A stretch of DNA of 64,000 bases, from contig NC_081360.1 in the NCBI RefSeq assembly GCF_030684315.1, positions 45,021,424 through 45,085,423 of the forward strand, read 5' to 3'. Shown piece after piece: positions 3,238-57,740 of this stretch. The translations under genes and the position numbers were made by a program. The notes beneath the pieces were generated by a model, which was not told the origin of the DNA, ran no database searches, and worked only from the letters and a program-made list of their open reading frames with translations. Every line of letters begins with the position of its first letter. The stretch's first letter is position 1. This stretch comes from Stegostoma tigrinum (Eukaryota).

Positions 3238-3299
3238 ACGTATGGTCTGACTGAGCCGGCAAGCTGCTGACTGTCAGTACAGGTCCCCAGTCCGACAAT

Positions 3300-3545
3300 C
3301 ATCCCGGCTCTGGGCACACTGGGCGTCCCTGCCCCGCTCCGGGTGCGCCGGGCATCCCTGCCCCGCTCTGGGCACTCCGGCCGTCCCTGCCCCGCTCCAG
3401 GCGCGCCAGGCGTCCCTGCCCCGCTCCGGGTGCGCCGGACGTCCCTGCCCCGCTCTGGGCATGACGGGCGCACTCTGGCCATCCCTGCCCCGCTCTGGGC
3501 ACTCCGGCCATCCCTGCCCCACTCTGGGCACTCCGGCCATCCCTA
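3300..3545. repeat. GC-rich minisatellite, about 29-30 bp unit (ccctgccccgctctgggcactccggccat and variants), about 8 copies
   Basis: Directly visible tandem array. Confidence 0.9.
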
Positions 3546-4309
3546 CACCACTCCATGCTTCCATCACGCTCTGCTCTGGCACTCAGCCAATCTGATGATG
3601 TCACTGCTGCTCCAAGATAAATTTTTTTCCACAAAAAAACCTTATAAACTTTGAAAAAGACAGAAGAATAAGGAAAGAAAAAAACAGATGGAACAGACAA
3701 GCTCCAGGTCAAGGATTCTCGACAGTGCCTACCCCACTACCTGGCCTCCACTGTCAGGATTTTTGAACGATGCTGTGGACAATTGCTACTGAGCCACTTG
3801 AATGTGGACAATATTGAGACTAGGCACAATGAGAACGGATTGTTCTGCTTCATGGCCCACATGCATCCTTCCACATTTACTCCCACTTTGTGAGTAAGCA
3901 TAGGGAAACGGTGATAATTCCACATATCTTTGCAGGGAAAGGTTTCAAGTTTCAGGTTTTCAAGGAAGTGCACTGCCAATCAATCCAGGAAGATGTCCAA
4001 TGTACAGTTCACACGACCACGCTCCCAAATAGTTCGTTTATCCACTGAGAAAAGCTACATAAAGCATACTTCTCGTAATTTCAGTGCTGTCCCAGAGGAT
4101 GCACCAGCATTTCAGGCAACGTAATTGTCTACATGCACTCTAATGTTGCAGAGTTACCGATGAAGGAAGGGTCAAAAGAGGTTCCTCAGGATTTCTCTCA
4201 ACCTGCTAGCTGACATAAGGGCCTGCACTAAACAGCACATAAATAGGATATACTGACGGATGACTTAACATCAATCTGACCTTAGCCCAATGCTGTGTTA
4301 CTGCACTAT

Positions 4310-5865
4310 ATCACTCACTGACTCTGAGTGATTTATTGTTGCCACATATACTACGATACAGTGAAAAGTGTTGTTTTGCATGCCATACAGGCAGATCGAA
4401 CCATACAAAATGCATCAGGGTAGCAGAACAGAATACGGGATACAGTGTTACAGCTGCAGAGGAAGTGCGGAGAGAGAGATCAGAATTAACATGTGAGAGG
4501 TCCATTCAAAAGTCTGCTAACAGCAGGGAAGATAATGAAATGTGAGGCTGGATGAACACAGCAGGCCCAGCAGCATCTCAGGAGCACAAAAGCTGACATT
4601 GCGGGCCTAGACCCTTCATCACAGAGGGGGATGGGGTGAAGGCTCTGGAATAAATAGGGAGAGAGGGGGAGGCGGACCGAAGATGGAGAGAAAAGAAGAT
4701 AAGTGGAGAGGAGAGTATAGGTGGGGAGGTAGGGAGGGGATAGGTCAGTCCAGGGAAGACGGACAGGTCAAGGAGGTGGGATGAGGTTAGTAGGTAGGAG
4801 ATGGAGGTGCGGCTTGGAGTGGAAGGAAGGGATGGGTGAGAAGAAGAACAGCTTAGGGAGGCAGAGACTGGTTGGACTGGTTTTGGGATGCAGTGGGTGG
4901 AGGGGAAGAGCTGGGCTGGTTGTGTGGTGCAGTGGGGAGAGGGGACGAACTGGGCTGGTTTTGGGATGCGGTGGGGGAAGGGGAGATTTTGAAGCTGGTG
5001 AAGTCCACATTGATACCATTGGGCTGCAGGGTTCCCAAGCGGAATATGAGTTGCTGTTCCTGCAACCTTCGGGTGGCATCATTGTGGCACAGCAGGAGGC
5101 CCATTATGGACAGGTCATCTAAAGAATGGGAGGGGGAGTGGAAATGGTTTGCGACTGGGAGGTGCAGTTGTTTATTGCGAACCGAGCAGAGGTGTTCTGC
5201 AAAGCGGTCCCCAAGCCTCCGCTTGGTTTCCTCAATGTCTCTGCCTCCCTAACCTGTTCTTCCTCTCACCCATCCCTTCCTCCCACTCCAAGCCTCACCT
5301 CCATCTCCTACCTACTAACCTCATCCCACTTCCTTGACCTGTCCGTCTTCCCTGGACTGACCTATCCCCTCCCTACCTCCCCACCTATACTCTCCTCTCC
5401 ACCTATCTTCTTTTCTCTCCATCTTCGGTCCGCCTCCCCCTCTCTCCCTATTTATTCCAGAACCCTCACCCCATCCCCCTCTGTGATGAAGGGTCTAGGC
5501 CTGAAATGTCAGCTTTTGTGCTCCCGAGATGCTGCTGGGCCTGCTGTGTTCATCCAGCCTCACATTTCATTATCTTGGATTCTCCAGCATCTGCAGTTCC
5601 CATTATCACTAACAGCAGGGAAGAAGCTGTTCTTGAATCTGTTTGTACGTGTATTCAAATTTACATGTCTTCTGCCTGACAGAAGAGAGTGGAAGAAAGC
5701 ATAACCTGGGTCTGAAGGGCCTTTGATTATGTTGGTTGCTTTCCCAGGACAGTGGGAAGTATAGACGGAGTCAACGGATGGAATGCTGGTTTGCATGATG
5801 GACTGGGCTGTGTTCATGATTCTCTATAGATTCTTGCAGTCTTGGGAAGAGCAGTTGCCGTATCA
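4310..5865 (-). mobile_element. Degenerate LINE 3' fragment (Rex1/Babar-like tail) interrupted by the fold-back PLE
   Basis: Minus-strand remnant ...FHSLLSGRRH...RTNRFKNSFFPAV, and a tail ttttcactgta...aataaa followed by short repeats. Confidence 0.55.
4533..5608. mobile_element. Fold-back PLE insertion: inverted 3' fragment (about 4533-5235, minus strand) joined to a forward pseudo-LTR (about 5237-5608)
   Basis: Both arms match the 3' end of the 46-49 kb PLE. Flanked by direct repeat ctaacagcagggaaga (4517-4532 and 5609-5624). Confidence 0.88.
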
Positions 5866-42308: not shown

Positions 42309-42449
42309 GCTTTGCTAGAAGTAGTCAATGACTTATTTGAAGAACAAACAGACTTGGAAAAAATTGTGAGGAAAATAATGCACCGAGCACAGACATTACT
42401 GAAATGTGAACGTTGTTCTGTCCTGCTCCTGGAAGACATTGAGTCTCCG
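42309..42449 (+). CDS. PDE11A: PDE11A coding exon (start of GAF-B): ALLEVVNDLFEEQTDLEKIVRKIMHRAQTLLKCERCSVLLLEDIESP
   Basis: ttttcttaaatAG acceptor, 141 bp, donor GTAAGT. In frame with the previous exon and near-identical to recalled human PDE11A. Confidence 0.96.
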
Positions 42450-42895: not shown

Positions 42896-43870
42896 CCATA
42901 AAACTAGAAGGAACAGTAACAGGAGTAGGCGGTTTGGCCCCTTGAGCCTGCTCCACTATTCAATAGGATCATGGCTGATCTGACATTCCTCATGTCTACT
43001 TTCCTGCCCATTCCCCATAAGCCTTAACTCCCCTCCCGATCAAGAATATCAAGTGTACACAAGGACTCTGTGCCCCAGCTTTGTGTGGCAAGGGGTGTCA
43101 AAGTCTCTCAATTCTCCGATAGAAAAAACTCCCCCTCATCTCAGGCTTAAATTGATGTCCCATAATTCTGAGGCAATGCTCTCTGGTTCTTGACTCTCCC
43201 ATGAGGAGAAACATTCTCGCAGCATTGATCCTGCCAATTCCCTTAAGAATTCTATATGTTTCAATGAGATCACCTCTCATTGGTCTAAACTCCAGTGATT
43301 AGAATCCCAATCTGTTTAGCCTTTGTCATAAAACAATCTCTTCTTAATGCCCTCTGAGCAACCACTAATGAAATGATACCTTTCCTTTAATAAAGGGACC
43401 AAGACAGCTTACAGTATTCTAGATGTGTTCTAACCAGCACCTTGTTTAGTTAGAGTTGCACTTTCCTACTTGGACTCCAACCTCCTTGAAAGGGCCAACA
43501 TCCATTAGCCTTCCTGATTAACTTCTGTACCTGTGTGCTAGCTTTCTGTGTATTCTGCACAAATCCCTTTGTGTTGCAGCTTTCTGCAGTTTTAGTCCAT
43601 TTACATAATAGCCCACCCTTTTGTTTTCCCTTCCGAAATAAAGAACTTTACATTTTCCCACATTATGCTACATTTGCCAACTTTTGCCCACTTTATCTAA
43701 CGTATGAATATTCCTCTGTAAACTATATTCCTTTCACAGTTTGCCTTTCCGGCTATTTTTGTGTTGTCTGCAAATTTGTTTACAGTACACTCACTTCCTT
43801 CTGCTAAATTATTAATATCTATTATAAACAGTTATATTGTAAACTAGTCACGGGTCACCAACCTGAAAAA
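42896..43870 (-). mobile_element. CR1 3' fragment in the intron between the 141-bp and 65-bp exons
   Basis: Minus strand RGDLIETYRILKGIGR and FADNTK remnant. Confidence 0.85.
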
Positions 43871-43995
43871 GATAAACCCTGACTGTCAGAAGTGGATTGA
43901 CAATTTCTCTGAATTCATTCAATTTCTAAGATGAGAATAAAGATATTTTTCTGCTGCATATTATGACACATATTTTTCCTGATATTTTGTGGCAG

Positions 43996-44060
43996 GTGGT
44001 AAAGTTTACAAAATCATTTGAACTCCTGTCCCCTAAGTGCAGTGCAGATGCTGAAAGCAG
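43996..44060 (+). CDS. PDE11A: PDE11A coding exon (GAF-B): VVKFTKSFELLSPKCSADAES(S)
   Basis: ttttgtggcAG acceptor, 65 bp ending in phase 2, donor GTAAGT. Matches recalled human VVKFTKSFELMSPKCSADAENS. Confidence 0.95.
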
Positions 44061-44472
44061 GTAAGTTCCTCATTATATTTAATAAGAGTTTGGTGGGGTC
44101 TAAGAGACGCAATTATAAGCAAATGGCATGTCTTCCAATCTACCACACAGGCCCTGGGACAAGGGATTACATCAGGGTCTACTAACCAGGACTTGAGGTT
44201 ATAGGGAACCCGCTTTCAGATTAGGATGGGATGGTGGTGCTGGTGTCGGGAGCAGGACCGGGGGCATAGGGCTTGGGACAAGGGCAGGTCTGCTGCCTGT
44301 GATGTCTATGCCTGGCCCTATTGCTGTCCTACACTTTGGAGGATTGTGGATCCTGTGGGCATGAATTTAGAAAATTTAAATTCATTGTGTAGAGAGTGAA
44401 AGATGTTTAAGTAAACATTGCAAAACTTAAATTAAACAGGAATTACATTGTATATTATAACCTACTGAAAAA

Positions 44473-45776
44473 AGAATACACCTCCTCCCACCCACCCTCC
44501 TGCAAAAATTCCATCCCCTATTCCCAATTCCTCCGCCTCCGCCGCATCTGCTCCCACGATAAGACATTCCACTCCCGCACATCCCAGATGTCCAAGTTCT
44601 TTAAGGACCGCAACTTCCCCCCCACGGTGATTGAGAACGCCCTTGACCGCGTCTCCCGCATTTCCCGCGACACATTCCTCACACCCCGCCCCCGCCACAA
44701 CCGCCCCAAGAGGATCCCCCTCGTTCTCACACACCACCCTACCAACCTCCGGATACAACGCATTATCCTCCGACACTTCCGCCATTTACAATCCGACCCC
44801 ACCACCCAAGACATTTTTCCATCCCCACCCCTGTCTGCTTTCCGGAGAGACCACTCTCTCCGTGACTCCCTTGTTCGCTCCACACTGCCCTCCAACCCCA
44901 CCACACCCGGCACCTTCCCCTCCAACCGCAGGAAATGCTACACTTGTCCCCACACCTCCTCCCTCACCCCCATCCCAGGCCCCAAGATGACATTCCACAT
45001 TAAGCAGAGGTTCACCTGCACATCTGCCAATGTGGTATACTGCATCCACTGTACCCGGTGCGGCTTTCTCTACATTGGGGAAACCAAGCGGAGGCTTGGG
45101 GACCGCTTTGCAGAACACCTCCGCTCAGTTCGCAACAAACAACTGCACCTCCCAGTCGCAAACCATTTCCACTCCCCCTCCCATTCTCTTGATGACATGA
45201 CAATCATGGGCCTCCTGCACTGCCACAATGATGCCACCCGAAGGTTGCAGGAACAGCAACTCATATTCCGCCTGGGAACCCTGCAGCCATATGGTATCAA
45301 TGTGGACTTCACCAGTTTCAAAATCTCCCCTTCCCCCACTGCATCCCTAAACCAGCCCAGTTCATCCCCTCCCCCCACTGCACCACACAACCAGCCCAGC
45401 TCTTCCCCCCCACCCACCGCATCCCAAAACCAGTCCAACCTGTCTCTGCCTCCCTAACCGGTTCTTCCTCTCACCCATCCCTTCCTCCCACCCCAAGCCG
45501 CACCCCCAGCTACCTACTAACCTCATCCCACCTCCTTGACCTGTCCGTCTTCCCTGGACTGACCTATCCCCTCCCTACCTCCCCACCTACACCCTCTCCA
45601 CCTATCTTCTTTACTCTCCATCTTCGGTCCGCCTCCCCCTCTCTCCCTATTTATTCCAGTTCCCTCCCCCCATCCCCCTCTCTGATGAAGGGTCTAGGCC
45701 CGAAACGTCAGCTTTTGTGCTCCTGAGATGCTGCTTGGCCTGCTGTGTTCATCCAGCCTCACATTTTATTATCTTG
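44473..45776 (+). mobile_element. 5'-truncated copy of the same PLE (RT thumb, GIY-YIG, 3' pseudo-LTR)
   Basis: Near-identical to about 48486-49780. The 289-aa ORF at 44588-45457 is the C-terminal part of the polyprotein. Confidence 0.93.
45680..45711 (+). ncRNA. Minimal type I hammerhead ribozyme in PLE pseudo-LTR
   Basis: CUGAUGA-A-[GGGUCUAGGCCC stem II]-GAAA-CG-UC, predicted cleavage after C45709. Stem III is only the ACGU palindrome, as in dimer-type minimal PLE hammerheads. Confidence 0.8.
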
Positions 45777-46227
45777 AACATAAATATGCTCTAAATTACA
45801 AAATTGTACCGTGTTATTAAGCTAATGGTTGTTGATATATCTTCCTCTGTTTTAATCTTTTGTTCTGTCATCTTTTAAGTATTTACTTTAAACATATCAA
45901 TCTTGGTTTGAACATGAGTAGGAGAGAGGCTGGGTGAGCAACGAGCTCTTCTGATACTTTCATTATTAGCCCTGGATGATTTAACTTGTAGGTTTCATTT
46001 TAATACGTTTGGTAGGCTGTGTCTCCATCACACAGAAACTATAGTCCTTCACTCTACAATATCATTGCAAGCAGCTTGAACCTATTTAAAGCTAGAATGT
46101 ATCTCTTAAAGCAAGGATATACTATCTCCAGCATCTGCAGTTCCCATTATCTCTGATAATCTCCAGCATCTGCAGTTCCCATTATCTCTGATACTATTTT
46201 AACCTCACTGCGAAGCCTCTTCCAGGG

Positions 46228-49200
46228 ATGCCTAACCTGAAGAAGTTACCCTCCTCCCTCCGGACCAACCTCAGGGAATCTCTCTCCCATTGCAACTCTC
46301 TTGTAATCTCTTCGGCCTTGAAACTGCTCGACCATGTCCTGAAGCAAACCAGGTACCGCAGCCACATCACCTTTCTCAGCACCTGCCTACGGAACCAGAT
46401 CATCCCCAAGGGACTACAGTCCACATTTCAGCCTTCCCAATTTGGCCCCAACCGTGACCACCTCTACACCCAGAATATTCAGACCCTTCAGAAGCGTTTC
46501 TCCCTGCGAGTCCTGAAACAGACACTTGCAGCCATGCGCCGGCACCTCCAGGCACTGCAATCCAGCCTGCCCCAGCTCAGAGCCTCCCTCTTCCAGACCT
46601 GCAAAGGACCCCTGCTGTTTTTTATCCTCCGCAGGATCCACAGACTGAACACCCAGTTCCACTCAGCTTTACTGGACACCAAAAATCGTAAGTACAACCA
46701 ACTCACTGGCCCCTGCCACCCACAAGAGGATTCCTGCGCCTCCCAAATCCCGACTCTGTCCCTGCCCCTCCCCCACCATGCACCCGCCGCCATTGACCAT
46801 GAGGACACGGCCGGAGACCCCACCGATGACGTCACATCCGCCTCCGCCGGCCACAGAACTTCCGGAACCGCTGCTGCAGTCACCACCTCCATGTCCAGGT
46901 ACTACAGCCCACACACCACCCTCACCTCAGCTGCTGCCGCACACCCCGATCCTCCCACCGCCGACGGAACCCCGCCCACGGTCGACGCCGACGGAACCCC
47001 GCCCACGGCCGACGCCGACGGAACCCCGCTCACGGCCGACGGAACCCCGCCCACGGCCGACGGAACCCCGCCCACGGCCGACGACATAATCGCTCCGCCC
47101 ACAACCTCCACAGCCTGCAACCCCAGAGAAGACAGCCACACTGAGCCCTGCCGCATCTTCACCATCCCCCCAGACCTCCTACTGACTGAGGACGAACGGT
47201 CAGTCCTGAGCAAGGGGCTCACCTTTGTCCCCCTACAACCACACATCAACGAATACCAGTCACGGTCGGACATAGAGCAGTTTTTCCGCCGTCTTCGCCT
47301 GCATGCCTACTTCTTCAACCGGGAACCCAACCCTCCTTCCACTGACCCCTTCACCCGCTTCCAACACAAGTCCTCCTCCTGGACACCACCCCCAGGCCTC
47401 CTACCCTCCCTCGACCTCTTCATCTCCAACTGCCGTCGAGACATCAACCGCCTCAACCTCTCCACCCCTCTCACCCACTCCAACCTCTCCCCCGCAGAAC
47501 GGGCAGCCCTCCGCTCCCTCCGCTCCAACCCCAACCTCACCATCAAACCCGCAGACAAGGGTGGCGCAGTGGTAGTATGGTGTACTGACCTCTACATCGC
47601 CGAGGCCAGACGCCAACTCTCCGACACCACCTCCTACCGCCTCCTCGATCATGACCCCACACCCGAGCACCAAACCATCATCTCCAACACCATTCATGAC
47701 CTCATCACCTCAGGGGACCTCCCACCCACAGCCTCCAACCTCATTGTTCCCCAACCCCGCACGGCCCGTTTCTATCTCCTTCCCAAAATCCACAAACCTG
47801 CCTGCCCTGGTCGACCCATCGTCTCAGCCTGCTCCTGCCCCACCGAACTCATCTCCACCTATCTGGACTCCATTTTCTCCCCTTTGGTCCAGGAACTCCC
47901 CACTTATGTCCGTGACACCACCCACGCCCTCCACCTCCTCCAGGACTTCCAATTCCCTGGCCCCCAACACCTCATATTCACCATGGACGTCCAGTCCCTG
48001 TACACCTGCAATCCGCATGGAGATGGCCTCAAGGCCCTCCGCTTCTTCCTGTCCCGCAGGCCCGACCAGGCCCCCTCCACCGACACTCTCATCCGCCTAG
48101 CGGAACTCGTCCTCACACTCAACAACTTCTCTTTTGACTCCTCCCACTTCCTACAGACTAAGGGGGTGGCCATGGGCACCCGCATGGGCCCCAGCTATGC
48201 CTGCCTCTTTGTAGGTTACGTGGAACAGTCCCTCTTCCGCACCTACACAGGCCCCAAACCCCACCTCTTCCTCCGGTACATTGATGACTGTATCGGCGCC
48301 GCCTCTTGCTCCCCAGAGGAGCTCGAACAGTTCATCCACTTCACCAACACCTTCCACCCCAACCTTCAGTTCACCTGGGCCATCTCCAGCACATCCCTCA
48401 CCTTCCTGGACCTCTCAGTCTCCATCTCAGGCAACCAGCTTGTAACTGATGTCCATTTCAAGCCCACCGACTCCCACAGCTACCTAGAATACACCTCCTC
48501 CCACCCACCCTCCTGCAAAAATTCCATCCCCTATTCCCAATTCCTCCGCCTCCGCCGCATCTGCTCCCACGATAAGACATTCCACTCCCGCACATCCCAG
48601 ATGTCCAAGTTCTTTAAGGACCGCAACTTTCCCCCCACGGTGATTGAGAACGCCCTTGACCGCGTCTCCCGCGACACATCCCTCACACCCCGCCCCCGCC
48701 ACAACCGCCCCAAGAGGATCCCCCTCGTTCTCACACACCACCCTACCAACCTCCGGATACAACGCATTATCCTCCGACACTTCCGCCATTTACAATCCGA
48801 CCCCACCACCCAAGACATTTTTCCATCCCCTCCCCTGTCTGCTTTCCGGAGAGACCACTCTCTCCGTGACTCCCTTGTTCGCTCCACACTGCCCTCCAAC
48901 CCCACCACACCCGGCACCTTCCCCTGCAACCGCAGGAAATGCTACACTTGTCCCCACACCTCCTCCCTCACCCCCATCCCAGGCCCCAAGATGACATTCC
49001 ACATTAAGCAGAGGTTCACCTGCACATCTGCCAATGTGGTATACTGCATCCACTGTACCCGGTGCGGCTTCCTCTACATTGGGGAAACCAAGCGGAGGCT
49101 TGGGGACCGCTTTGCAGAACACCTCCGCTCAGTTCGCAACAAACAACTGCACCTCCCAGTCGCAAACCATTTCCACTCCCCCTCCCATTCTCTTGATGAC

Positions 49201-49461
49201 ATGTCCATCATGGGCCTCCTGCAGTGCCACAATGATGCCACCCGAAGGTTGCAGGAACAGCAACTCATATTCCGCCTGGGAACCCTGCAGCCATATGGTA
49301 TCAATGTGGACTTTACCAGTTTCAAAATCTCCCCTTCCCCCACTGCATCCCTAAACCAGCCCAGTTCATCCCCTCCCCCCACTGCACCACACAACCAGCC
49401 CAGCTCTTCCCCTCCACCCACTGTATCCCAAAACCAGTCCAACCTGTCTCTGCCTCCCTAA
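46228..49461 (+). CDS. PLE polyprotein: reverse transcriptase + GIY-YIG endonuclease (1077 aa)
   Basis: RT motifs KPADKGGAVVV, YLLPKIHK, GRPIVS, TMDVQSLYT, GVAMGTRMGPSYA, LRYIDD, FLDLSV. Cys linker CNRRKCYTC. Endonuclease NVVYCIHCTRCGFLYIGET...RFAEH...VANHF...GINV. Confidence 0.95.
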   Translation: MPNLKKLPSSLRTNLRESLSHCNSLVISSALKLLDHVLKQTRYRSHITFLSTCLRNQIIPKGLQSTFQPSQFGPNRDHLYTQNIQTLQKRFSLRVLKQTLAAMRRHLQALQSSLPQLRASLFQTCKGPLLFFILRRIHRLNTQFHSALLDTKNRKYNQLTGPCHPQEDSCASQIPTLSLPLPHHAPAAIDHEDTAGDPTDDVTSASAGHRTSGTAAAVTTSMSRYYSPHTTLTSAAAAHPDPPTADGTPPTVDADGTPPTADADGTPLTADGTPPTADGTPPTADDIIAPPTTSTACNPREDSHTEPCRIFTIPPDLLLTEDERSVLSKGLTFVPLQPHINEYQSRSDIEQFFRRLRLHAYFFNREPNPPSTDPFTRFQHKSSSWTPPPGLLPSLDLFISNCRRDINRLNLSTPLTHSNLSPAERAALRSLRSNPNLTIKPADKGGAVVVWCTDLYIAEARRQLSDTTSYRLLDHDPTPEHQTIISNTIHDLITSGDLPPTASNLIVPQPRTARFYLLPKIHKPACPGRPIVSACSCPTELISTYLDSIFSPLVQELPTYVRDTTHALHLLQDFQFPGPQHLIFTMDVQSLYTCNPHGDGLKALRFFLSRRPDQAPSTDTLIRLAELVLTLNNFSFDSSHFLQTKGVAMGTRMGPSYACLFVGYVEQSLFRTYTGPKPHLFLRYIDDCIGAASCSPEELEQFIHFTNTFHPNLQFTWAISSTSLTFLDLSVSISGNQLVTDVHFKPTDSHSYLEYTSSHPPSCKNSIPYSQFLRLRRICSHDKTFHSRTSQMSKFFKDRNFPPTVIENALDRVSRDTSLTPRPRHNRPKRIPLVLTHHPTNLRIQRIILRHFRHLQSDPTTQDIFPSPPLSAFRRDHSLRDSLVRSTLPSNPTTPGTFPCNRRKCYTCPHTSSLTPIPGPKMTFHIKQRFTCTSANVVYCIHCTRCGFLYIGETKRRLGDRFAEHLRSVRNKQLHLPVANHFHSPSHSLDDMSIMGLLQCHNDATRRLQEQQLIFRLGTLQPYGINVDFTSFKISPSPTASLNQPSSSPPPTAPHNQPSSSPPPTVSQNQSNLSLPP
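46958..47082 (+). repeat. Coding minisatellite within the PLE ORF (21-27 bp unit; TADGTPP repeats)
   Basis: gccgacggaaccccgcccacg repeated about 5 times in frame. Confidence 0.9.
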
Positions 49462-49683
49462 CCGGTTCTTCCTCTCACCCATCCCTTCCTCCCACCCCAA
49501 GCCGCACCCCCAGCTACCTACTAACCTCATCCCACCTCCTTGACCTGTCCGTCTTCCCTGGACTGACCTATCCCCTCCCTACCTCCCCACCTACACCCTC
49601 TCCACCTATCTTCTTTACTCTCCATCTTCGGTCCGCCTCCCCCTCTCTCCCTATTTATTCCAGTTCCCTCCCCCCATCCCCCT

Positions 49684-49715
49684 CTCTGATGAAGGGTCTA
49701 GGCCCGAAACGTCAG
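49684..49715 (+). ncRNA. Minimal type I hammerhead ribozyme in PLE pseudo-LTR
   Basis: Identical core ctgatgaagggtctaggcccgaaacgtc, predicted cleavage after C49713. Confidence 0.8.
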
Positions 49716-51094
49716 CTTTTGTGCTCCTGAGATGCTGCTTGGCCTGCTGTGTTCATCCAGCCTCACATTTTATTATCTTGGAATCTCCAGCATCTGCAGT
49801 TCCCATTATCTCTCATATACTTGCTGCTGTCTAATTTTGTTGGAACAACATGAACAAGATTGTTTCAGTGCATTAGAGTGCTGCTCATGTTACCAGCAGC
49901 TCCTTGCTACCTGAAGAAAATGAATTTACTCTGCCATGGCAAGATTCAATTAAAAACCTGGAATTAATAGTCTAATGTTGACAATGAGCCTGGATTTGAT
50001 TGTTGGGGAAATACCCACCTGGTTTGCTAATGTCCTTCAGGGAAGGAAATCTGCCATTCTTATCTGGTCTCGCCTAAATATGATTCCAAACACACAGCAA
50101 AATGATTGACTGTTACCTGTCCTCTGAGCAATTAGGGATGGCGATAAATGGTGATGCTCATATCCCTTGATGAATAAAAGAAAACCAATTCCTTTAGCAT
50201 GAATAACCTTCCAGTATGTCTCACCTGACACACTCTCCCAGAGAATCCAACACGCGAGTTCTATAGTTTGTTGTTTAGTAGGTAAAGATTTCATCCATTT
50301 TATTGATACCACAAACAGCAAAGAGATGAAGAACATACTGGTAGTGTTGGTTAAGGGATATTGCTTCCACATCTTTGAAAATGTGTAATGGGATCCATTA
50401 TGCAGAGCTGAACGGACAGACCATTGATGTCTGGGATGGATGGTACATCCAGCAATGCAGCATTTTATAAGCACTCAAAGATGATGTGCTCATGTTTTGT
50501 TCTGGGTGGTGATCCCACAGCCCTCTGTCTCAGAATTAAGAAGGCAGCCACTGCAGATTGGCATGTAATGTGCACTTTGTAGTTTAATAACTTATGCCAC
50601 TAAACAATCATTCTAAACAGAATGGGGATTAAAAAAAGCACTAGGTATATTTTAATAAAGCAGAAAGTGTTAAAATTACCTTGTACTTTCATCATTGGTG
50701 ACCTACAGAAACCTTCATTTGATAGCCAGGAATGATCCACCCACATATAGAAGATTTAAAATTAAAGTCATAATTCTGAGCAGCAAATGCGCAATTGCAT
50801 TCTCACACGGTTGCTCCATTAATTCTAATCCACCTTGTCTATAAAATGAATGGCAGCAGGTAAATCACTGTAAAAATTAGTTCAAACAGATGGGATATAG
50901 GTCACACATCCCTTGGAGTACTACTGTATACCACTACCCTATAGATTGTCAACTCCATACTTTACAATGTTTCTTTAAAGACAAGCTACAAATATAAAGT
51001 AGTGGCAATGAGTTGATTGAGGTACATTTGCAAAAACCTGTAGTAAGTACTTTCCAGGCCATGTTACCTTTAAATTTCCGATTTTCCCAATTTA

Positions 51095-52023: not shown

Positions 52024-52220
52024 AGTGATAATAGGAACTGCAGATGCTGGAGAATCCGAGATAACAAGGTGTGGAGCTGGCCAAGCAGCAGGAAAGCTGA
52101 CGTATATGTACAACATGTACATTTTCTGATGAAGGGTCTAGGCCCGAAACGTTAGCTTTCCTGCTCCTAAGATGCTGCTTGGCCTGCTGTGTTCATCCAG
52201 CTCCACACCTTGTTATCTCA
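52024..52220. mobile_element. Short fold-back PLE end (related subfamily)
   Basis: Perfect inverted repeat gagataacaaggtgtggagctgg / ccagctccacaccttgttatctc enclosing a hammerhead core. Confidence 0.8.
52126..52155 (+). ncRNA. Hammerhead motif in a solo/fold-back PLE end
   Basis: ctgatgaagggtctaggcccgaaacgtt (GUU triplet). Confidence 0.65.
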
Positions 52221-53039: not shown

Positions 53040-56000
53040 AGAAAACATAGCTGTCCTGGCTCTCACCAAGATACCAGTAATAAATACATCTGCCTCTGAC
53101 AGTATTGATGGGAGTGATTCCCACACAATTTTCACATTCATTTTGCAGATATCCTTCCTGGTGTTATCTAGCATCACTGCGGTACTGAATGGGATAGCTT
53201 TTATAAAAAGCTAACAACTCAAGACTAGGGGCCTAGCAGGCACTTTAAGCTATCAGCAGCAGCTATTCCATCTCAATCAGTCAGCTCATGGCCTATCTCA
53301 TCTGCCCACTGTACAATTGTCACCAAGCCACCCTGGTTCAGTGAAGATATCTCTGGATTATTACCAGTGCCATGAGATAACGAGGTAAGAAATAGGGAGA
53401 GAGTGCAGCTAAACACGTGGCTACAAGGCTGATGTAGGAGGGAGGGCTTCCATTATGTGGATAACTGGAGCACATACTGGCGAAGGTGGGACCTGTACAG
53501 TAAGGACAGGTTGCACCTGAACCGGAAGGGCACAAATATCCTGGGAGGGAGGTTTGCTAGAACTGTACGGATTGGTTTAAACTAGTTTGGCAGGGGGTAG
53601 GAAACCGGATTTATAATTCAGAGGCTGAGGTATTCGGCCTTCCAACAGACTCAACAGGGAGTGAGGTGGGTTATAAAGAAATGCGGTCTATGGAGCATAA
53701 TTGCAGACACTGAGCTGGTTTGTGGTGTGCATACTTCAATGCTAGAAGTATCAGAAATAAAGCGGATGAACTTAGGGCATGGGTCAGTACTCGAAACTAC
53801 GATGTTGTGGCCGTTACAGAAACTTGGGTAACTCAGGGACAGGAATGGTTGTTGGAAGTTCTGGGATTTAGATGCTTTTAAAGAAATAGGGAGAGTGGAA
53901 AAAGAGGTGGGAGAGTGGCCATGCTAGTCAGGGCTCGTATAGCAGCTACTGAAAGGCAATTTGAGAATGATATGTCTGCAGAGTCAGTTTGGGTTGAGGT
54001 CAGGAACAAGAAAGGAGCAGTCACTTTGTTGGGGATTTTTTACGGACCTCCTAATAGTTGCAGAGAAGTAGAGGAGCAGATTGGGAGGCAGATACAGGAA
54101 AGGTGCAGAAGTCACAGGGTTGTAGTAGTGGGTGACTTCAACTTTCCAAATATTGATTGGAAACATTTTAGTTGTAATAGTTTAGATGGAGCAGATTTTG
54201 CCCAGTGCATCCAGGAAGGATCCCTGATACAGTATGTAGATAGATCAACACAAGGAGAGGCCACTTTGGATTTGTTGCTTGGCAATGAACCAGGCCAAGT
54301 GTTAGACCTGCTGGTAGGAGCGCATTTTGATGGTAGCGATCATAACTCATTTCTTTCATGATAGTCGTGGATAAGGATAGGTACATAACAGCAGGGTAAG
54401 GTTTATTTTCGGGGGAAGGGTAATTACAACTCAGTTAGGCAAGAACTGGGGAACATAATTTGGGAACAGATGCTGCCGGGGAAGAGCACCACAGAAATGT
54501 GGAGATCGTTTAAGGAATGCATACTGCGCGTGCTCGATATGTTTGTCCCTTGCAGGCAGAGAAGATGCAATCGAGTGAGGGATCTATGGTTCTCGAGAGA
54601 GGTCGAATGACTGGTTAAGAGGAAGAAGGAGGCTTATGTAAGGTTTAGGAAAAGAGGAACAGAAAAGGCTCCAGAGGGATGCAAGTTAGCCAAGAAGGAG
54701 CTGAAGAAAGGGCTTAGGAGAGCTATAAGAGGGGATGAGAAAACCTTGGCAGAGAGAATCAAGGAAAACCCCAAGGCTTTTTACACGTATGTGAGGAATA
54801 AGAGAATGACCAGAGTAAGAGTAGGGCCGATGAAGGATTGTAAAGGGGATTTGTGCACGGAGCCTAAAAAGATAGGAGAGATCCTTAATGAATACCTTTC
54901 TTCAGTATTCACAACTAAGAGGGACCGAGTTGTAGAGGAGGACATTGTGAAACCGGCAGGTAGGCTAAAGGAGGTTGATGTTAGTAAAGAAGATGTGCCA
55001 AGAATCCTGAGAAAGTTGAAGATAGATTAGTCACCAAGGCCTGATGGGTTTTATCCAAGGATTCTATGGGAAGCGAGGGAAGAGATCGCCGGGCCTCTGG
55101 CAATGATCTTTTCTTCCTCACTGTCCATGGGTACAGTGCCGGAAACTTGAAAAGAGGCAAACGTCATTTGCTTGTTCAAAAAAGGGAATAGGGATAACCC
55201 CAGAAATCACAGGCCAGTTAGTCTTACATCAATGGTGGGGAAATTTTTGGAAAGGACTCTGAGAGATAGGATTTATGATCACTTGGATGGGCACAGGTTG
55301 ATTCATGATAGTCAGCATGAATTTGTAAAGGGTAGATCATGCCTCACAAACCTTATTGAATTCTTTGAAGACGTGACCAAACATGTGGATGAAGGTAGAG
55401 CAGTGGATGTGGAATACATGGATTTAAGTAAGCCATTTGATAAGATTCCCCATGGTAGGCTCATGCAGAAGGTAAGGAGGCATGGGATAGGGGGAGATGT
55501 GGCAGATTGGATTTAGAATTGGCTGACCCTTAGAAGACAAAGGGTGGTAGCGGACGGAAAATATTCAATGCGGTGCTCAGTTACGAGTGGTGTACCACAA
55601 GGATCTGTTCTGGGTCCTCTCCTATTTGTGATTTTTGTAAATGATTCGGACGTAGGAGTGGAAGGGTGGATTAGTACATTTGCGGACAATATGAAGGTGG
55701 GTCACGATGTGGACAGTGCAGAGGGCTGTTCTAGGTTACAAGGGGACATTGATAGGATCCAGAGCTGGGCTGAGAAGTGGCAGATGGAATTTAACCCTGA
55801 AAAGTGTGAGGTGATTCATTTTGGAAGGACAAACTTTAAAGCAGGATACAGAGTTAATGGAAAGATTCTTGGCAGTGTGGAGGAGCAGAGGGATCTTGGG
55901 TTTCATGTTCACAATTCCCTGAAAGCTGCCACCAGGTGGATAGAGTTGTTAAGGCGGCATATGGTGTGTTGGCTTTCATTAATGGAGGGATTGAGTTCAA

Positions 56001-57740
56001 GAGCCGTGAAGTTATGCTCCAGCTATACAAAAGCTTGGTTTGGCCACATCTGGAGTATTGTGTCCAGTTCTGGTCACCTCATTACAGGAAAGATGTGGAA
56101 GCATTAGAAAAGGTACAGAGGAGATTTATCAGGATAGTGCCTGGGAAGGAGGGAAGGTCTTGTGAGGAAAGTTGAGAGAGCTAGGGTTTTTCTTTTTAGA
56201 ACGACGAAGGATGAGAGGTGACTTGATAGAGGTGTGCAAAATGATCAGAGGTATAGATAGAGTAGACAGCCAGAGACTTTTTCCTAGGGTGTAGGTAGCT
56301 TTTACGAGGGGACATAGTTTTAAAGTGAGTGGAGGTAGATATTGGGCAGACATCAGAGGTAGGCTCTTTACTCAGAGAGTGGTGGGGTGTGGAATGCATT
56401 GCCGGAGAGGGTAGTGGAGTCAACCTCATTCGGGTCATTTAAGCGGCTATTAGATAGGCATCAGGATGATAGTATAAGGTAAGGGTGGAGGTTAGATAGA
56501 CCTTAGGTTTAGGGCCAAAGTTTGGCGCAACATTGTGGGCCGAAGGGCCTGTACTGCGCTGTAATGTTCTATGCTCTATGTTCTAAGAGGGCCAGGAGGG
56601 CATGCCAGGAGCAGCAGTAGACAAACTTAAAAATAATGTATCAACCCCGTGAAGCTACAATACAGGATTACTTGCATGCCAAACCACATAAGCAGCAAGC
56701 AACAGACAGAGTTGTGTGATCCCACAACCAACGGATCAGATCCAAACTCTGGGGGCTTGCCAGATCTGGTCTTGAATGGTGGTGGACACCATCATTGATG
56801 ACGAGAGTCTATAAATGTCCCCAATCTTGAAAACAGGGGCACCCAACATATCGGTGTCAAATACATGTGGATGATCCACCAGAACCCGTTCCTGAGTTCC
56901 CCAGCATCAAAGATACCAGATTTCTGCCAATTTAATCCATTCTACATGATATCAAGAAATGGCTGAAGGCACTGGATACTCTGAAAGCTATGGATCCTGA
57001 TAACATTCTGTCAATACTACTAAAGATCTGTGCCCCAGGACTAACCACACCGTGAGTTGAGCTGTCCCTGTACAACCACTGTTACATATGCGGAAATATG
57101 GTATTGTGTGGGGAAATAAAAATTGTGCCACACAAGTGCAAAGCAATCCAAGACCATTATAACCTGATATTCAGTGGCCTTGCCGTGAAACCTCCACTAT
57201 TAACATCCTGAGCATTACCATGGAGCAGTAACTGAACTGAAGCAGCTATATAAATATTGCAGCTACAAGAGCAGGACAAAGGCTAGGGATTCTGTGGTAA
57301 GGAACATATCTCCTGACTCCTCAGTGCCTTTCCACCATCTACAAGGCACAAGTAAGATATGTGATGGGATACTATCCATTTGCCTGAATGGTTACAACTC
57401 CAACAACACTCTCAACTCAACATCATCCCAGATAAAACAGCTTGCTTAATTGGCACTCCATCCACTACTTTTGATCTTCATTCTCCTGGTTAGTGATGAT
57501 CAGTTCCAGTAATGTGTACCATCTACAAGATGCACTGCAACTACTCACCAAGGTGCTTTAAACGGCATCTTCCAAACAAGTGACCTCTATCATCTAGAAG
57601 GACAACAGCAGCCGACGCTTAGGAACTTCAGCACTTACAAGATCCCCTGTAAGCCACTCCCTATCTTGACTTGGAACCATCCGTTCACTGTTTGGCCAAA
57701 TCCTGACCATTCCTAACCACATCATTGGTGTACCAACACA
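53040..57740 (+). mobile_element. Older degenerate LINE (second family) split by the CR1 insertion (parts about 53040-53347 and 56586-57740)
   Basis: Sequence reads through the CR1 (ccctggttcagtgaaga | gggccaggagggcatgccaggagcagca). The downstream part shares ccaccatctacaaggcacaagt..gtgatgg.atact with other copies in the window. Confidence 0.65.
53348..56585 (+). mobile_element. CR1 (HER1-like) LINE, 5'-truncated within ORF1, pseudogenised
   Basis: ORF1 esterase remnant (ISGLLPVP, LHLNRKGTNILG). ORF2 APE endonuclease (VVVGDFNFPNIDW, LDLLLGN, SDHN) and RT (RPVSLTS, GRSCLTNL, SGVPQGSVLGP, FADN) with stops and frameshifts. 3' tail gggccgaagggcctgt...(ttctatg)n. Confidence 0.92.

Follow-up and report, generated by a model that had tools for sequence, protein, structure and literature searches.

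Two neighbouring Penelope-like insertions with identical minimal hammerhead motifs in a PDE11A intron of Stegostoma tigrinum

Minimal hammerhead ribozymes are known from the pseudo-long terminal repeats (pseudo-LTRs) of metazoan Penelope-like elements (PLEs), where tandem cores lie about 3-4 kb apart around an open reading frame (ORF) for a reverse transcriptase (RT) and an endonuclease, and where most motifs are scattered truncated singles or occur as inverted close pairs (Cervera and De la Pena 2014, PMC4209133). In that study, a single motif did not cleave in vitro and dimers or trimers showed "some, though low" activity. In PAc, a green anole Poseidon element and the one vertebrate PLE tested (Frangieh et al. 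2024, PMC11167929), the hammerhead cleaves only with the element protein, cleavage is dispensable for insertion in vitro, and RNA-seq shows no ends at the cleavage site. Here we analysed a 64,000-nt stretch of Stegostoma tigrinum DNA (contig NC_081360.1; hereafter the window, whose coordinates are used throughout), in which two identical minimal hammerhead cores flank a PLE ORF of 1077 aa within an intron of the gene PDE11A. The original prediction proposed that the two cores could act together as a dimeric ribozyme in the host transcript. We consider it very likely instead that the locus holds two separate insertions whose motifs are predicted to stay uncut in host pre-mRNA, the pair probably being a passenger that is spliced out together with the intron. 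Both copies stem from a Penelope-like retroelement that is young and very abundant.

The element belongs to the endonuclease-bearing (EN+) PLEs with minimal hammerheads, an already known kind, and its family shows the EN+ traits of a partial-tandem pseudo-LTR, inverted 5'-truncated copies and a 35-nt tail unit. From the CX2-5CxxC linker, the CCHH motif and the vertebrate host we infer a Neptune/Nematis-type placement, the linker and CCHH definition being that of Craig et al. 2021 (PMC8557442). The type shares with the shark element an RT followed by a C-terminal GIY-YIG domain, both motifs, partial tandems, inverted 5'-truncated copies and a tail of 30-40 bp; it differs in that the long copy described here, insertion 2, has no contiguous partial tandem. 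The likeness to the hammerheads of PMC4209133 extends to the core boxes, the extra base before stem II, the G10.1-C11.1 pair and the palindromic positions 15.2-16.2. Stem II of the shark motif has 4 bp and stem I 2 bp, against 7-8 and 4-5 in most minimal hammerheads described there, among which that of Drosophila virilis Penelope also has a 2-bp stem I. The 89,060 identical shark cores compare with about 9,000 motifs in Xenopus in the same source, and, unlike in the systems it covers, the upstream core at PDE11A comes from a separate insertion.

Schostak et al. 2008 (PMC2377424) described Penelope copies that lack terminal repeats and carry the ORF between 34-bp repeats with a target duplication. 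Insertion 2 has the same anatomy, although those copies belong to another clade and host and the shark 5' tail is doubled. PAc resembles the shark element in its two tail-defining 3'-end sites, AT-rich targets and genomic copies derived from uncleaved RNA; its hammerhead overlaps the start codon and its priming sites lie in the ORF, whereas both precede the ATG in the shark (PMC11167929). The release and circularisation by tandem hammerheads that the original prediction borrowed are those of non-LTR retrozymes (PMC7229834; Li et al. 2026, bioRxiv 10.64898/2026.07.22.740005). Demonstrated retrozymes have canonical type I hammerheads and units of a few hundred bases (PMC7229834), whereas the minimal cores at PDE11A are separated by 4 kb within an intron of the host. 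High hammerhead counts have a precedent in axolotl (up to 120,000), and retrozyme-like derivatives have been reported in one cartilaginous fish. A literature search, in which subscription papers were poorly covered and Repbase and Dfam not included, found no paper on shark PLE hammerheads among the results listed.

Two insertions in one intron

The elements of the locus are as follows.

44473..45776, + strand: insertion 1, a 5'-truncated copy (end of RT thumb, linker, GIY-YIG endonuclease, 3' untranslated region (UTR), hammerhead)
45682..45709, + strand: minimal hammerhead core 1, predicted cut after 45709
45777..46123, no strand: host intron DNA between the insertions (spacer), 347 bp, single genome match
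46117..46123, no strand: left copy of the 7-bp target-site duplication, the last 7 nt of the spacer
46124..49814, + strand: insertion 2, full-length (tail, ORF, 3' UTR, hammerhead, tail), with a 7-bp target-site duplication
46124..46193, + strand: 5' end of insertion 2, formed by two 35-nt tail units in head-to-tail order, from repeat analysis
46228..49461, + strand: ORF of 1077 aa without internal stop (RT, linker, GIY-YIG endonuclease)
49686..49713, + strand: minimal hammerhead core 2, with the same 28 nt as core 1, predicted cut after 49713
49783..49813, + strand: 3' tail of insertion 2, at the second family 3'-end site
49815..49821, no strand: right copy of the target-site duplication, present as a single copy at the related species' empty site

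The identical cores on the + strand and the open frame between them, as originally reported, were confirmed, as was the assignment to a Penelope-like element by the RT and GIY-YIG domains of the ORF. Insertion 1 is 98.4% identical to 48486-49780 and terminates without a tail at the first family 3'-end site; a search for a target duplication found none, and the empty site in a related species holds 7 other letters there. Insertion 2 has no contiguous upstream pseudo-LTR, and thus no hammerhead of its own upstream, and begins at 46124 in the tail units. Its 3' UTR is pyrimidine-rich. The identity of the two copies is complete over 94 nt around the cores (45681-45774 and 49685-49778).

A 1397-nt contig from the related species runs contiguously through the left flank (43657-44470), the spacer (45774-46118) and the right flank (49818-50048), so that both sites are empty there and the spacer, which is about 8% diverged between the species, is host DNA. 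The right-hand join was found in a second related-species read set too. Between the two insertions, 12 sites out of 1295 differ and there is one 9-nt indel, where unrelated copies of the family show a median of 10 differences (903 pairs) and within-insertion pairs at most 3 in eight of ten cases; at four of the differing sites each insertion holds a variant common in the family. The chance of the 7-mer that forms the target duplication is about 2e-4 per position. Because of the host spacer, the long copy's own target duplication, the different family variants and the empty sites in the related species, the two insertions are most likely separate events from different source RNAs, as the original prediction had assumed in treating the upstream copy as separate and truncated.

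An alternative is that a single insertion event produced both pieces, the upstream one being the pseudo-LTR of the long copy itself, either interrupted by captured DNA or assembled around it, since insertion 1 ends at element position 49780 and insertion 2 resumes at the equivalent of 49783. This is extremely unlikely given that the spacer is orthologous and contiguous with both flanks in the related species, that the target duplication encloses the long copy only, that 49780 is one of the two usual 3' ends of the family and that the copies hold different variants. An element intron or a captured repeat was likewise rejected as the source of the spacer, which is single-copy, orthologous host DNA. 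The tandem is also no assembly artefact: single short-read contigs of two samples, possibly including the animal used for the assembly, span each of the four junctions without a break (43574-44500, 45753-46152 and 49793-50042), and this suggests that both samples are homozygous for the insertions.

Layout and termini of the family

The genome contains 89,060 exact copies of the 31-nt core (44,429 and 44,631 by strand; reversed control, 0), or one per 72 kb per strand, and the junction of pseudo-LTR and ORF has 1,632 exact occurrences. Comparison loci were the best matches among 2737 candidates (40 scored) of a search with the 5' part of the ORF; 38 were fetched and 36 analysed, two having been dropped for a failed anchor. 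At 26 of the 36 loci a contiguous pseudo-LTR carries an exact core 166 nt upstream of the ATG, while 23 have exact cores on both sides of the ORF, 22 retain a frame of at least 1000 aa, and 16 combine two flanking cores with such a frame. With 23 of 36 other young copies bracketed and 89,060 exact cores in the genome, hammerhead-ORF-hammerhead is the ordinary shape of the family and not a noteworthy coincidence. A start inside the tail without a pseudo-LTR, as in insertion 2, was seen at three of the 36 other loci.

Over 464 kb around the window, 3' ends fall at 49775-49784 in 17 of 38 copies and at 49810-49813 in 16 (together 33 of 38). These clusters lie about 35 nt apart, as in the anole element, from which the two-site "tail" signature is known (PMC11167929). 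Among 5' ends in this unselected 464 kb, one of 38 copies starts at the cut site and 13 start at 49680-49687, just before the core, or 11 once two that continue as variants are removed. Genome-wide, 151,268 of 179,596 copies with 25 nt past the cut site (84%) retain the preceding core bases, and at a control step 179,596 of 199,085 (90%) continue. Ten nucleotides ahead of the core are retained by 52,661 of the 89,060 exact cores (59%), a figure to which subfamily variation contributes.

Thousands of short copies (about 95-135 bp) start 0-4 nt before the core and end at either tail site (for example L118-L121, L122-L151 and window 52125-52218), many of them in head-to-head inverted pairs. The base before the boundary of these copies is G in 4,821 exact copies and A or T in 2,302. 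The 5' boundary before the hammerhead could mark either a capped start site or a point where reverse transcription stops and folds back at the hairpin. By eye, about 17 of 30 G-prefixed loci are fold-back junctions, 8 by a strict test, and at one the G is part of a target duplication; a cap-derived G is thus a lead, the excess being present but confounded by fold-back junctions.

These termini bear on whether insertion 1 serves the long copy as a displaced pseudo-LTR promoter, with a start perhaps near 45678 and an uncleaved RNA running through spacer and ORF independently of the PDE11A promoter. D. virilis Penelope has its promoter and start site in the upstream copy's 3' UTR (PMC2377424), 11 of the 38 copies begin 0-6 nt before the core, and the G excess is what a capped 5' end could leave. 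The boundary may, however, be the RT stop indicated by the fold-backs, and the spacer would bring five upstream AUGs and has no second copy. On balance a promoter role is unlikely.

Each of the two separate insertions would have arisen by endonuclease-primed reverse transcription that began at either of two sites separated by about 35 nt. The first site would have primed insertion 1 and the second insertion 2, which thereby gained its tail, and reverse transcription of insertion 2 would have covered one unit length and halted in the tail, short of the upstream hammerhead.

Tandem arrays of short units also occur in the family (L110, 166 bp with 8 cores; L111, 313; L112, 329; L113, 336; L114, 293; and L115, 362 bp). 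Their near-identical units are built from the end of the 3' UTR, the hammerhead, the tail and the start of the ORF. Each has an internal deletion junction of its own, and none of these array junctions is at the cut site; similar junctions (46276-46312 to 49597-49636) are present at high depth in short-read contigs. These arrays look like non-autonomous, retrozyme-like derivatives, and they resemble the non-LTR retrozymes of PMC7229834. One further locus (L033, C17:35408306-35418305) consists of two complete units in full tandem and has three exact cores, the first pair 3699 bp apart; it is a better test substrate for dimeric cleavage than the PDE11A locus.

Predicted folding, the ORF and fate in host RNA

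Core 1 is composed of a CUGAUGA box, an extra A, stem II (45690-45693/45698-45701), a GAAA box and a palindrome (45705-45708). Its identification as a hammerhead rests on the published PLE minimal-hammerhead descriptor, with which it agrees in core boxes, stem II, palindromic stem III and NUH triplet; stem I has 2 bp by a Watson-Crick/GU count, short of the descriptor's 4-5. An Rfam scan of the window gave no match to a hammerhead family and one weak unrelated hit at E<=1. In ViennaRNA each monomer forms an inactive hairpin of -11.4 kcal/mol, with the first core box paired to the cut-site strand, and two copies can form an alternative duplex through the near-palindromic stem II at -38.0 kcal/mol, compared with -3.6 (monomer) and -5.5 kcal/mol (dimer) for the active shape. 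The active shape is thus predicted to be disfavoured and the motif to take the inactive hairpin. We propose that the motif would be mostly in this hairpin, and that the element protein or another chaperone would be needed for folding.

All catalytic landmarks of the ORF can be recognised: Asp587 and YIDD (684-687) in the RT, a C-x4-C-x2-C linker (900-908) and a GIY-YIG domain with CCHH. Pfam RVT_1 and GIY-YIG matched, both under the curated cut-offs, and a PDB sequence search with the RT-endonuclease part gave 0 matches at E<=0.1. Homologues numbered 1473 at E<=0.001 among 8000 scored, with conserved catalytic residues. In column comparisons with the best 120 of these, Cys900, 905 and 908 together with Cys943, Cys946, His965 and His981 are conserved in 112-118. 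The ORF had been called intact, which holds only in the sense of an open frame. RT motif A, however, has Asn595, eight residues past Asp587, where 118 of the 120 homologues have Ile, one Leu and one Val, and three residues are deleted near 813, where 116 of 120 are full length. Three further changes (318, 669 and 999) affect variable columns, and Cys452 stands in one that is mostly polar. Twelve residue differences are found in none of 20 other open-frame copies; 19 of the 21 copies tallied have private changes, and the 12 of insertion 2 are the highest count. Because Asn595 and the deletion hit conserved places, the product is probably impaired. Most open frames of the family encode 1073-1129 aa, and a 21/27-nt coding minisatellite in the N-terminal half (46951-47083) varies in length between copies.

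The sense-strand position in a PDE11A intron, likewise part of the original prediction, was verified: an exon matches PDE11A at 96-98%, and all exons lie on the + strand by tblastn. Within the gene, exact cores number seven sense and four antisense (expectation 4.6 per strand), and a relaxed descriptor gives 12 and 14, so that in this small sample there is no sign of depletion or purging of sense-strand cores. The seven sense cores and the family norm of 23 in 36 also mean that the arrangement is not special.

The cores might nevertheless pair through their palindromes in PDE11A pre-mRNA, be cut after 45709 and 49713, and free a 4.0-kb ORF RNA or a circle serving the element. Both cores are perfect and on the host-gene strand; Cervera and De la Pena (PMC4209133) proposed a dimeric release and circle route for PLEs in general; retrozymes with tandem canonical hammerheads do form circles, RtcB performing the ligation in vitro (PMC7229834); and the short hammerhead-unit arrays imply that circles or repeated template jumps occur in this family. 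The claim that such motifs cleave efficiently as dimers nonetheless runs counter to the inactive single motif and low dimer and trimer activity of PMC4209133, and the anole hammerhead is protein-dependent, dispensable and without RNA-seq ends at its site (PMC11167929). The shark motif, moreover, has a stem I of 2 bp and prefers an inactive fold, its partners are 4 kb apart, array junctions are off the cut site, and seven exact sense cores are tolerated in the gene.

Nor does a productive ORF RNA appear probable. A hammerhead cleavage product is uncapped. The putative 45710-49713 product would have six AUGs ahead of the ORF, would exclude the 3' priming sites and would carry a probable RT lesion. 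A circle copied into daughters would have left them with the spacer, and the spacer has no second copy in the genome (1 match), so there is no spacer-bearing daughter. Dimeric cleavage with release is accordingly very unlikely at this locus.

Several observations weigh against two separate, uncut insertions. Two insertions within 550 bp have a probability of 0.8% per copy and are individually unlikely, and the pair might also come from one event that used two templates at adjacent nicks; genome-wide, 12-21 ORF-bearing copies with an unrelated core at most 550 bp upstream are expected by chance. The 36 comparison loci are biased to young copies. Loss over the cut site, at 16% per 8 nt against 10% per 6 nt in the control, leaves room for copies that start there, at most a few percent. 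ViennaRNA models neither tertiary contacts nor proteins, the absence of cutting in host RNA is a prediction, and the protein may retain activity, all catalytic residues being present. We nevertheless favour two separate insertions with uncut motifs.

Genomic setting and significance

Three further features belong to the host gene or to the same intron.

42309..42449, + strand: PDE11A exon (GAF region), AG/GT bounded, 96-98% identity to PDE11A-named proteins
43996..44060, + strand: PDE11A exon directly upstream of the insertions, from sequence and tblastn
52125..52218, + strand: older short copy, the third in this intron; its cut triplet is GUU, and it might also pair as a dimer partner

The best matches of exon 42309-42449 among PDE11A-named proteins are from sharks. 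The exons were placed by tblastn with two cartilaginous-fish PDE11A proteins against 464 kb of neighbouring assembly, which gives a gene of about 332 kb (about -143,100 to +189,100 in window coordinates). Both insertions lie inside a 22.4-kb intron that begins at 44061 and extends past the end of the window to about 66506; a motif scan found no next exon in the window, and tblastn places its start at about 66507.

An inverted pair of older truncated family copies occupies 4529-5610 in an upstream PDE11A intron (arms 4529-5238 on the - and 5236-5610 on the + strand). The 464 kb around the window contain at least two further hammerhead-bearing families with a different stem II and a stem I of 3-5 bp. 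A small PDE11A exon (query residues about 765-784) matches four times at 100-bp spacing at about 156650-157010, beyond the window, in a tandem repeat that includes exon sequence. Within the window, a 29-nt GC-rich minisatellite lies at 3285-3587, and two ORF fragments at 1861-2418 and 55568-56107 resemble RT of CR1/L2-type long interspersed nuclear elements.

As found, the locus holds two young retroelement insertions of an ordinary sort. The single-copy spacer of 347 bp can serve as a natural barcode with which the proposed circle could be tested at one locus, and host-driven cleavage, if real, would newly connect a transposon ribozyme with the processing of host pre-mRNA. In the widest form of this idea, to which we give very little credence, a Penelope protein or host chaperone would activate dimeric cleavage between those of the about 90,000 identical genomic cores that lie in host introns, chance neighbours such as the PDE11A pair would rebuild ribozyme-ORF-ribozyme cassettes, and host promoters would free and circularise kilobase intron RNAs throughout the shark transcriptome, the 4.0-kb RNA included. 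The same wealth of about 90,000 identical cores, together with many open-frame copies, lets the transposition mechanism be read from the genome, with two priming sites, templates that are mostly uncleaved and a 5' boundary just before the hammerhead. The family thereby bears on the role that the hammerhead has in PLEs.

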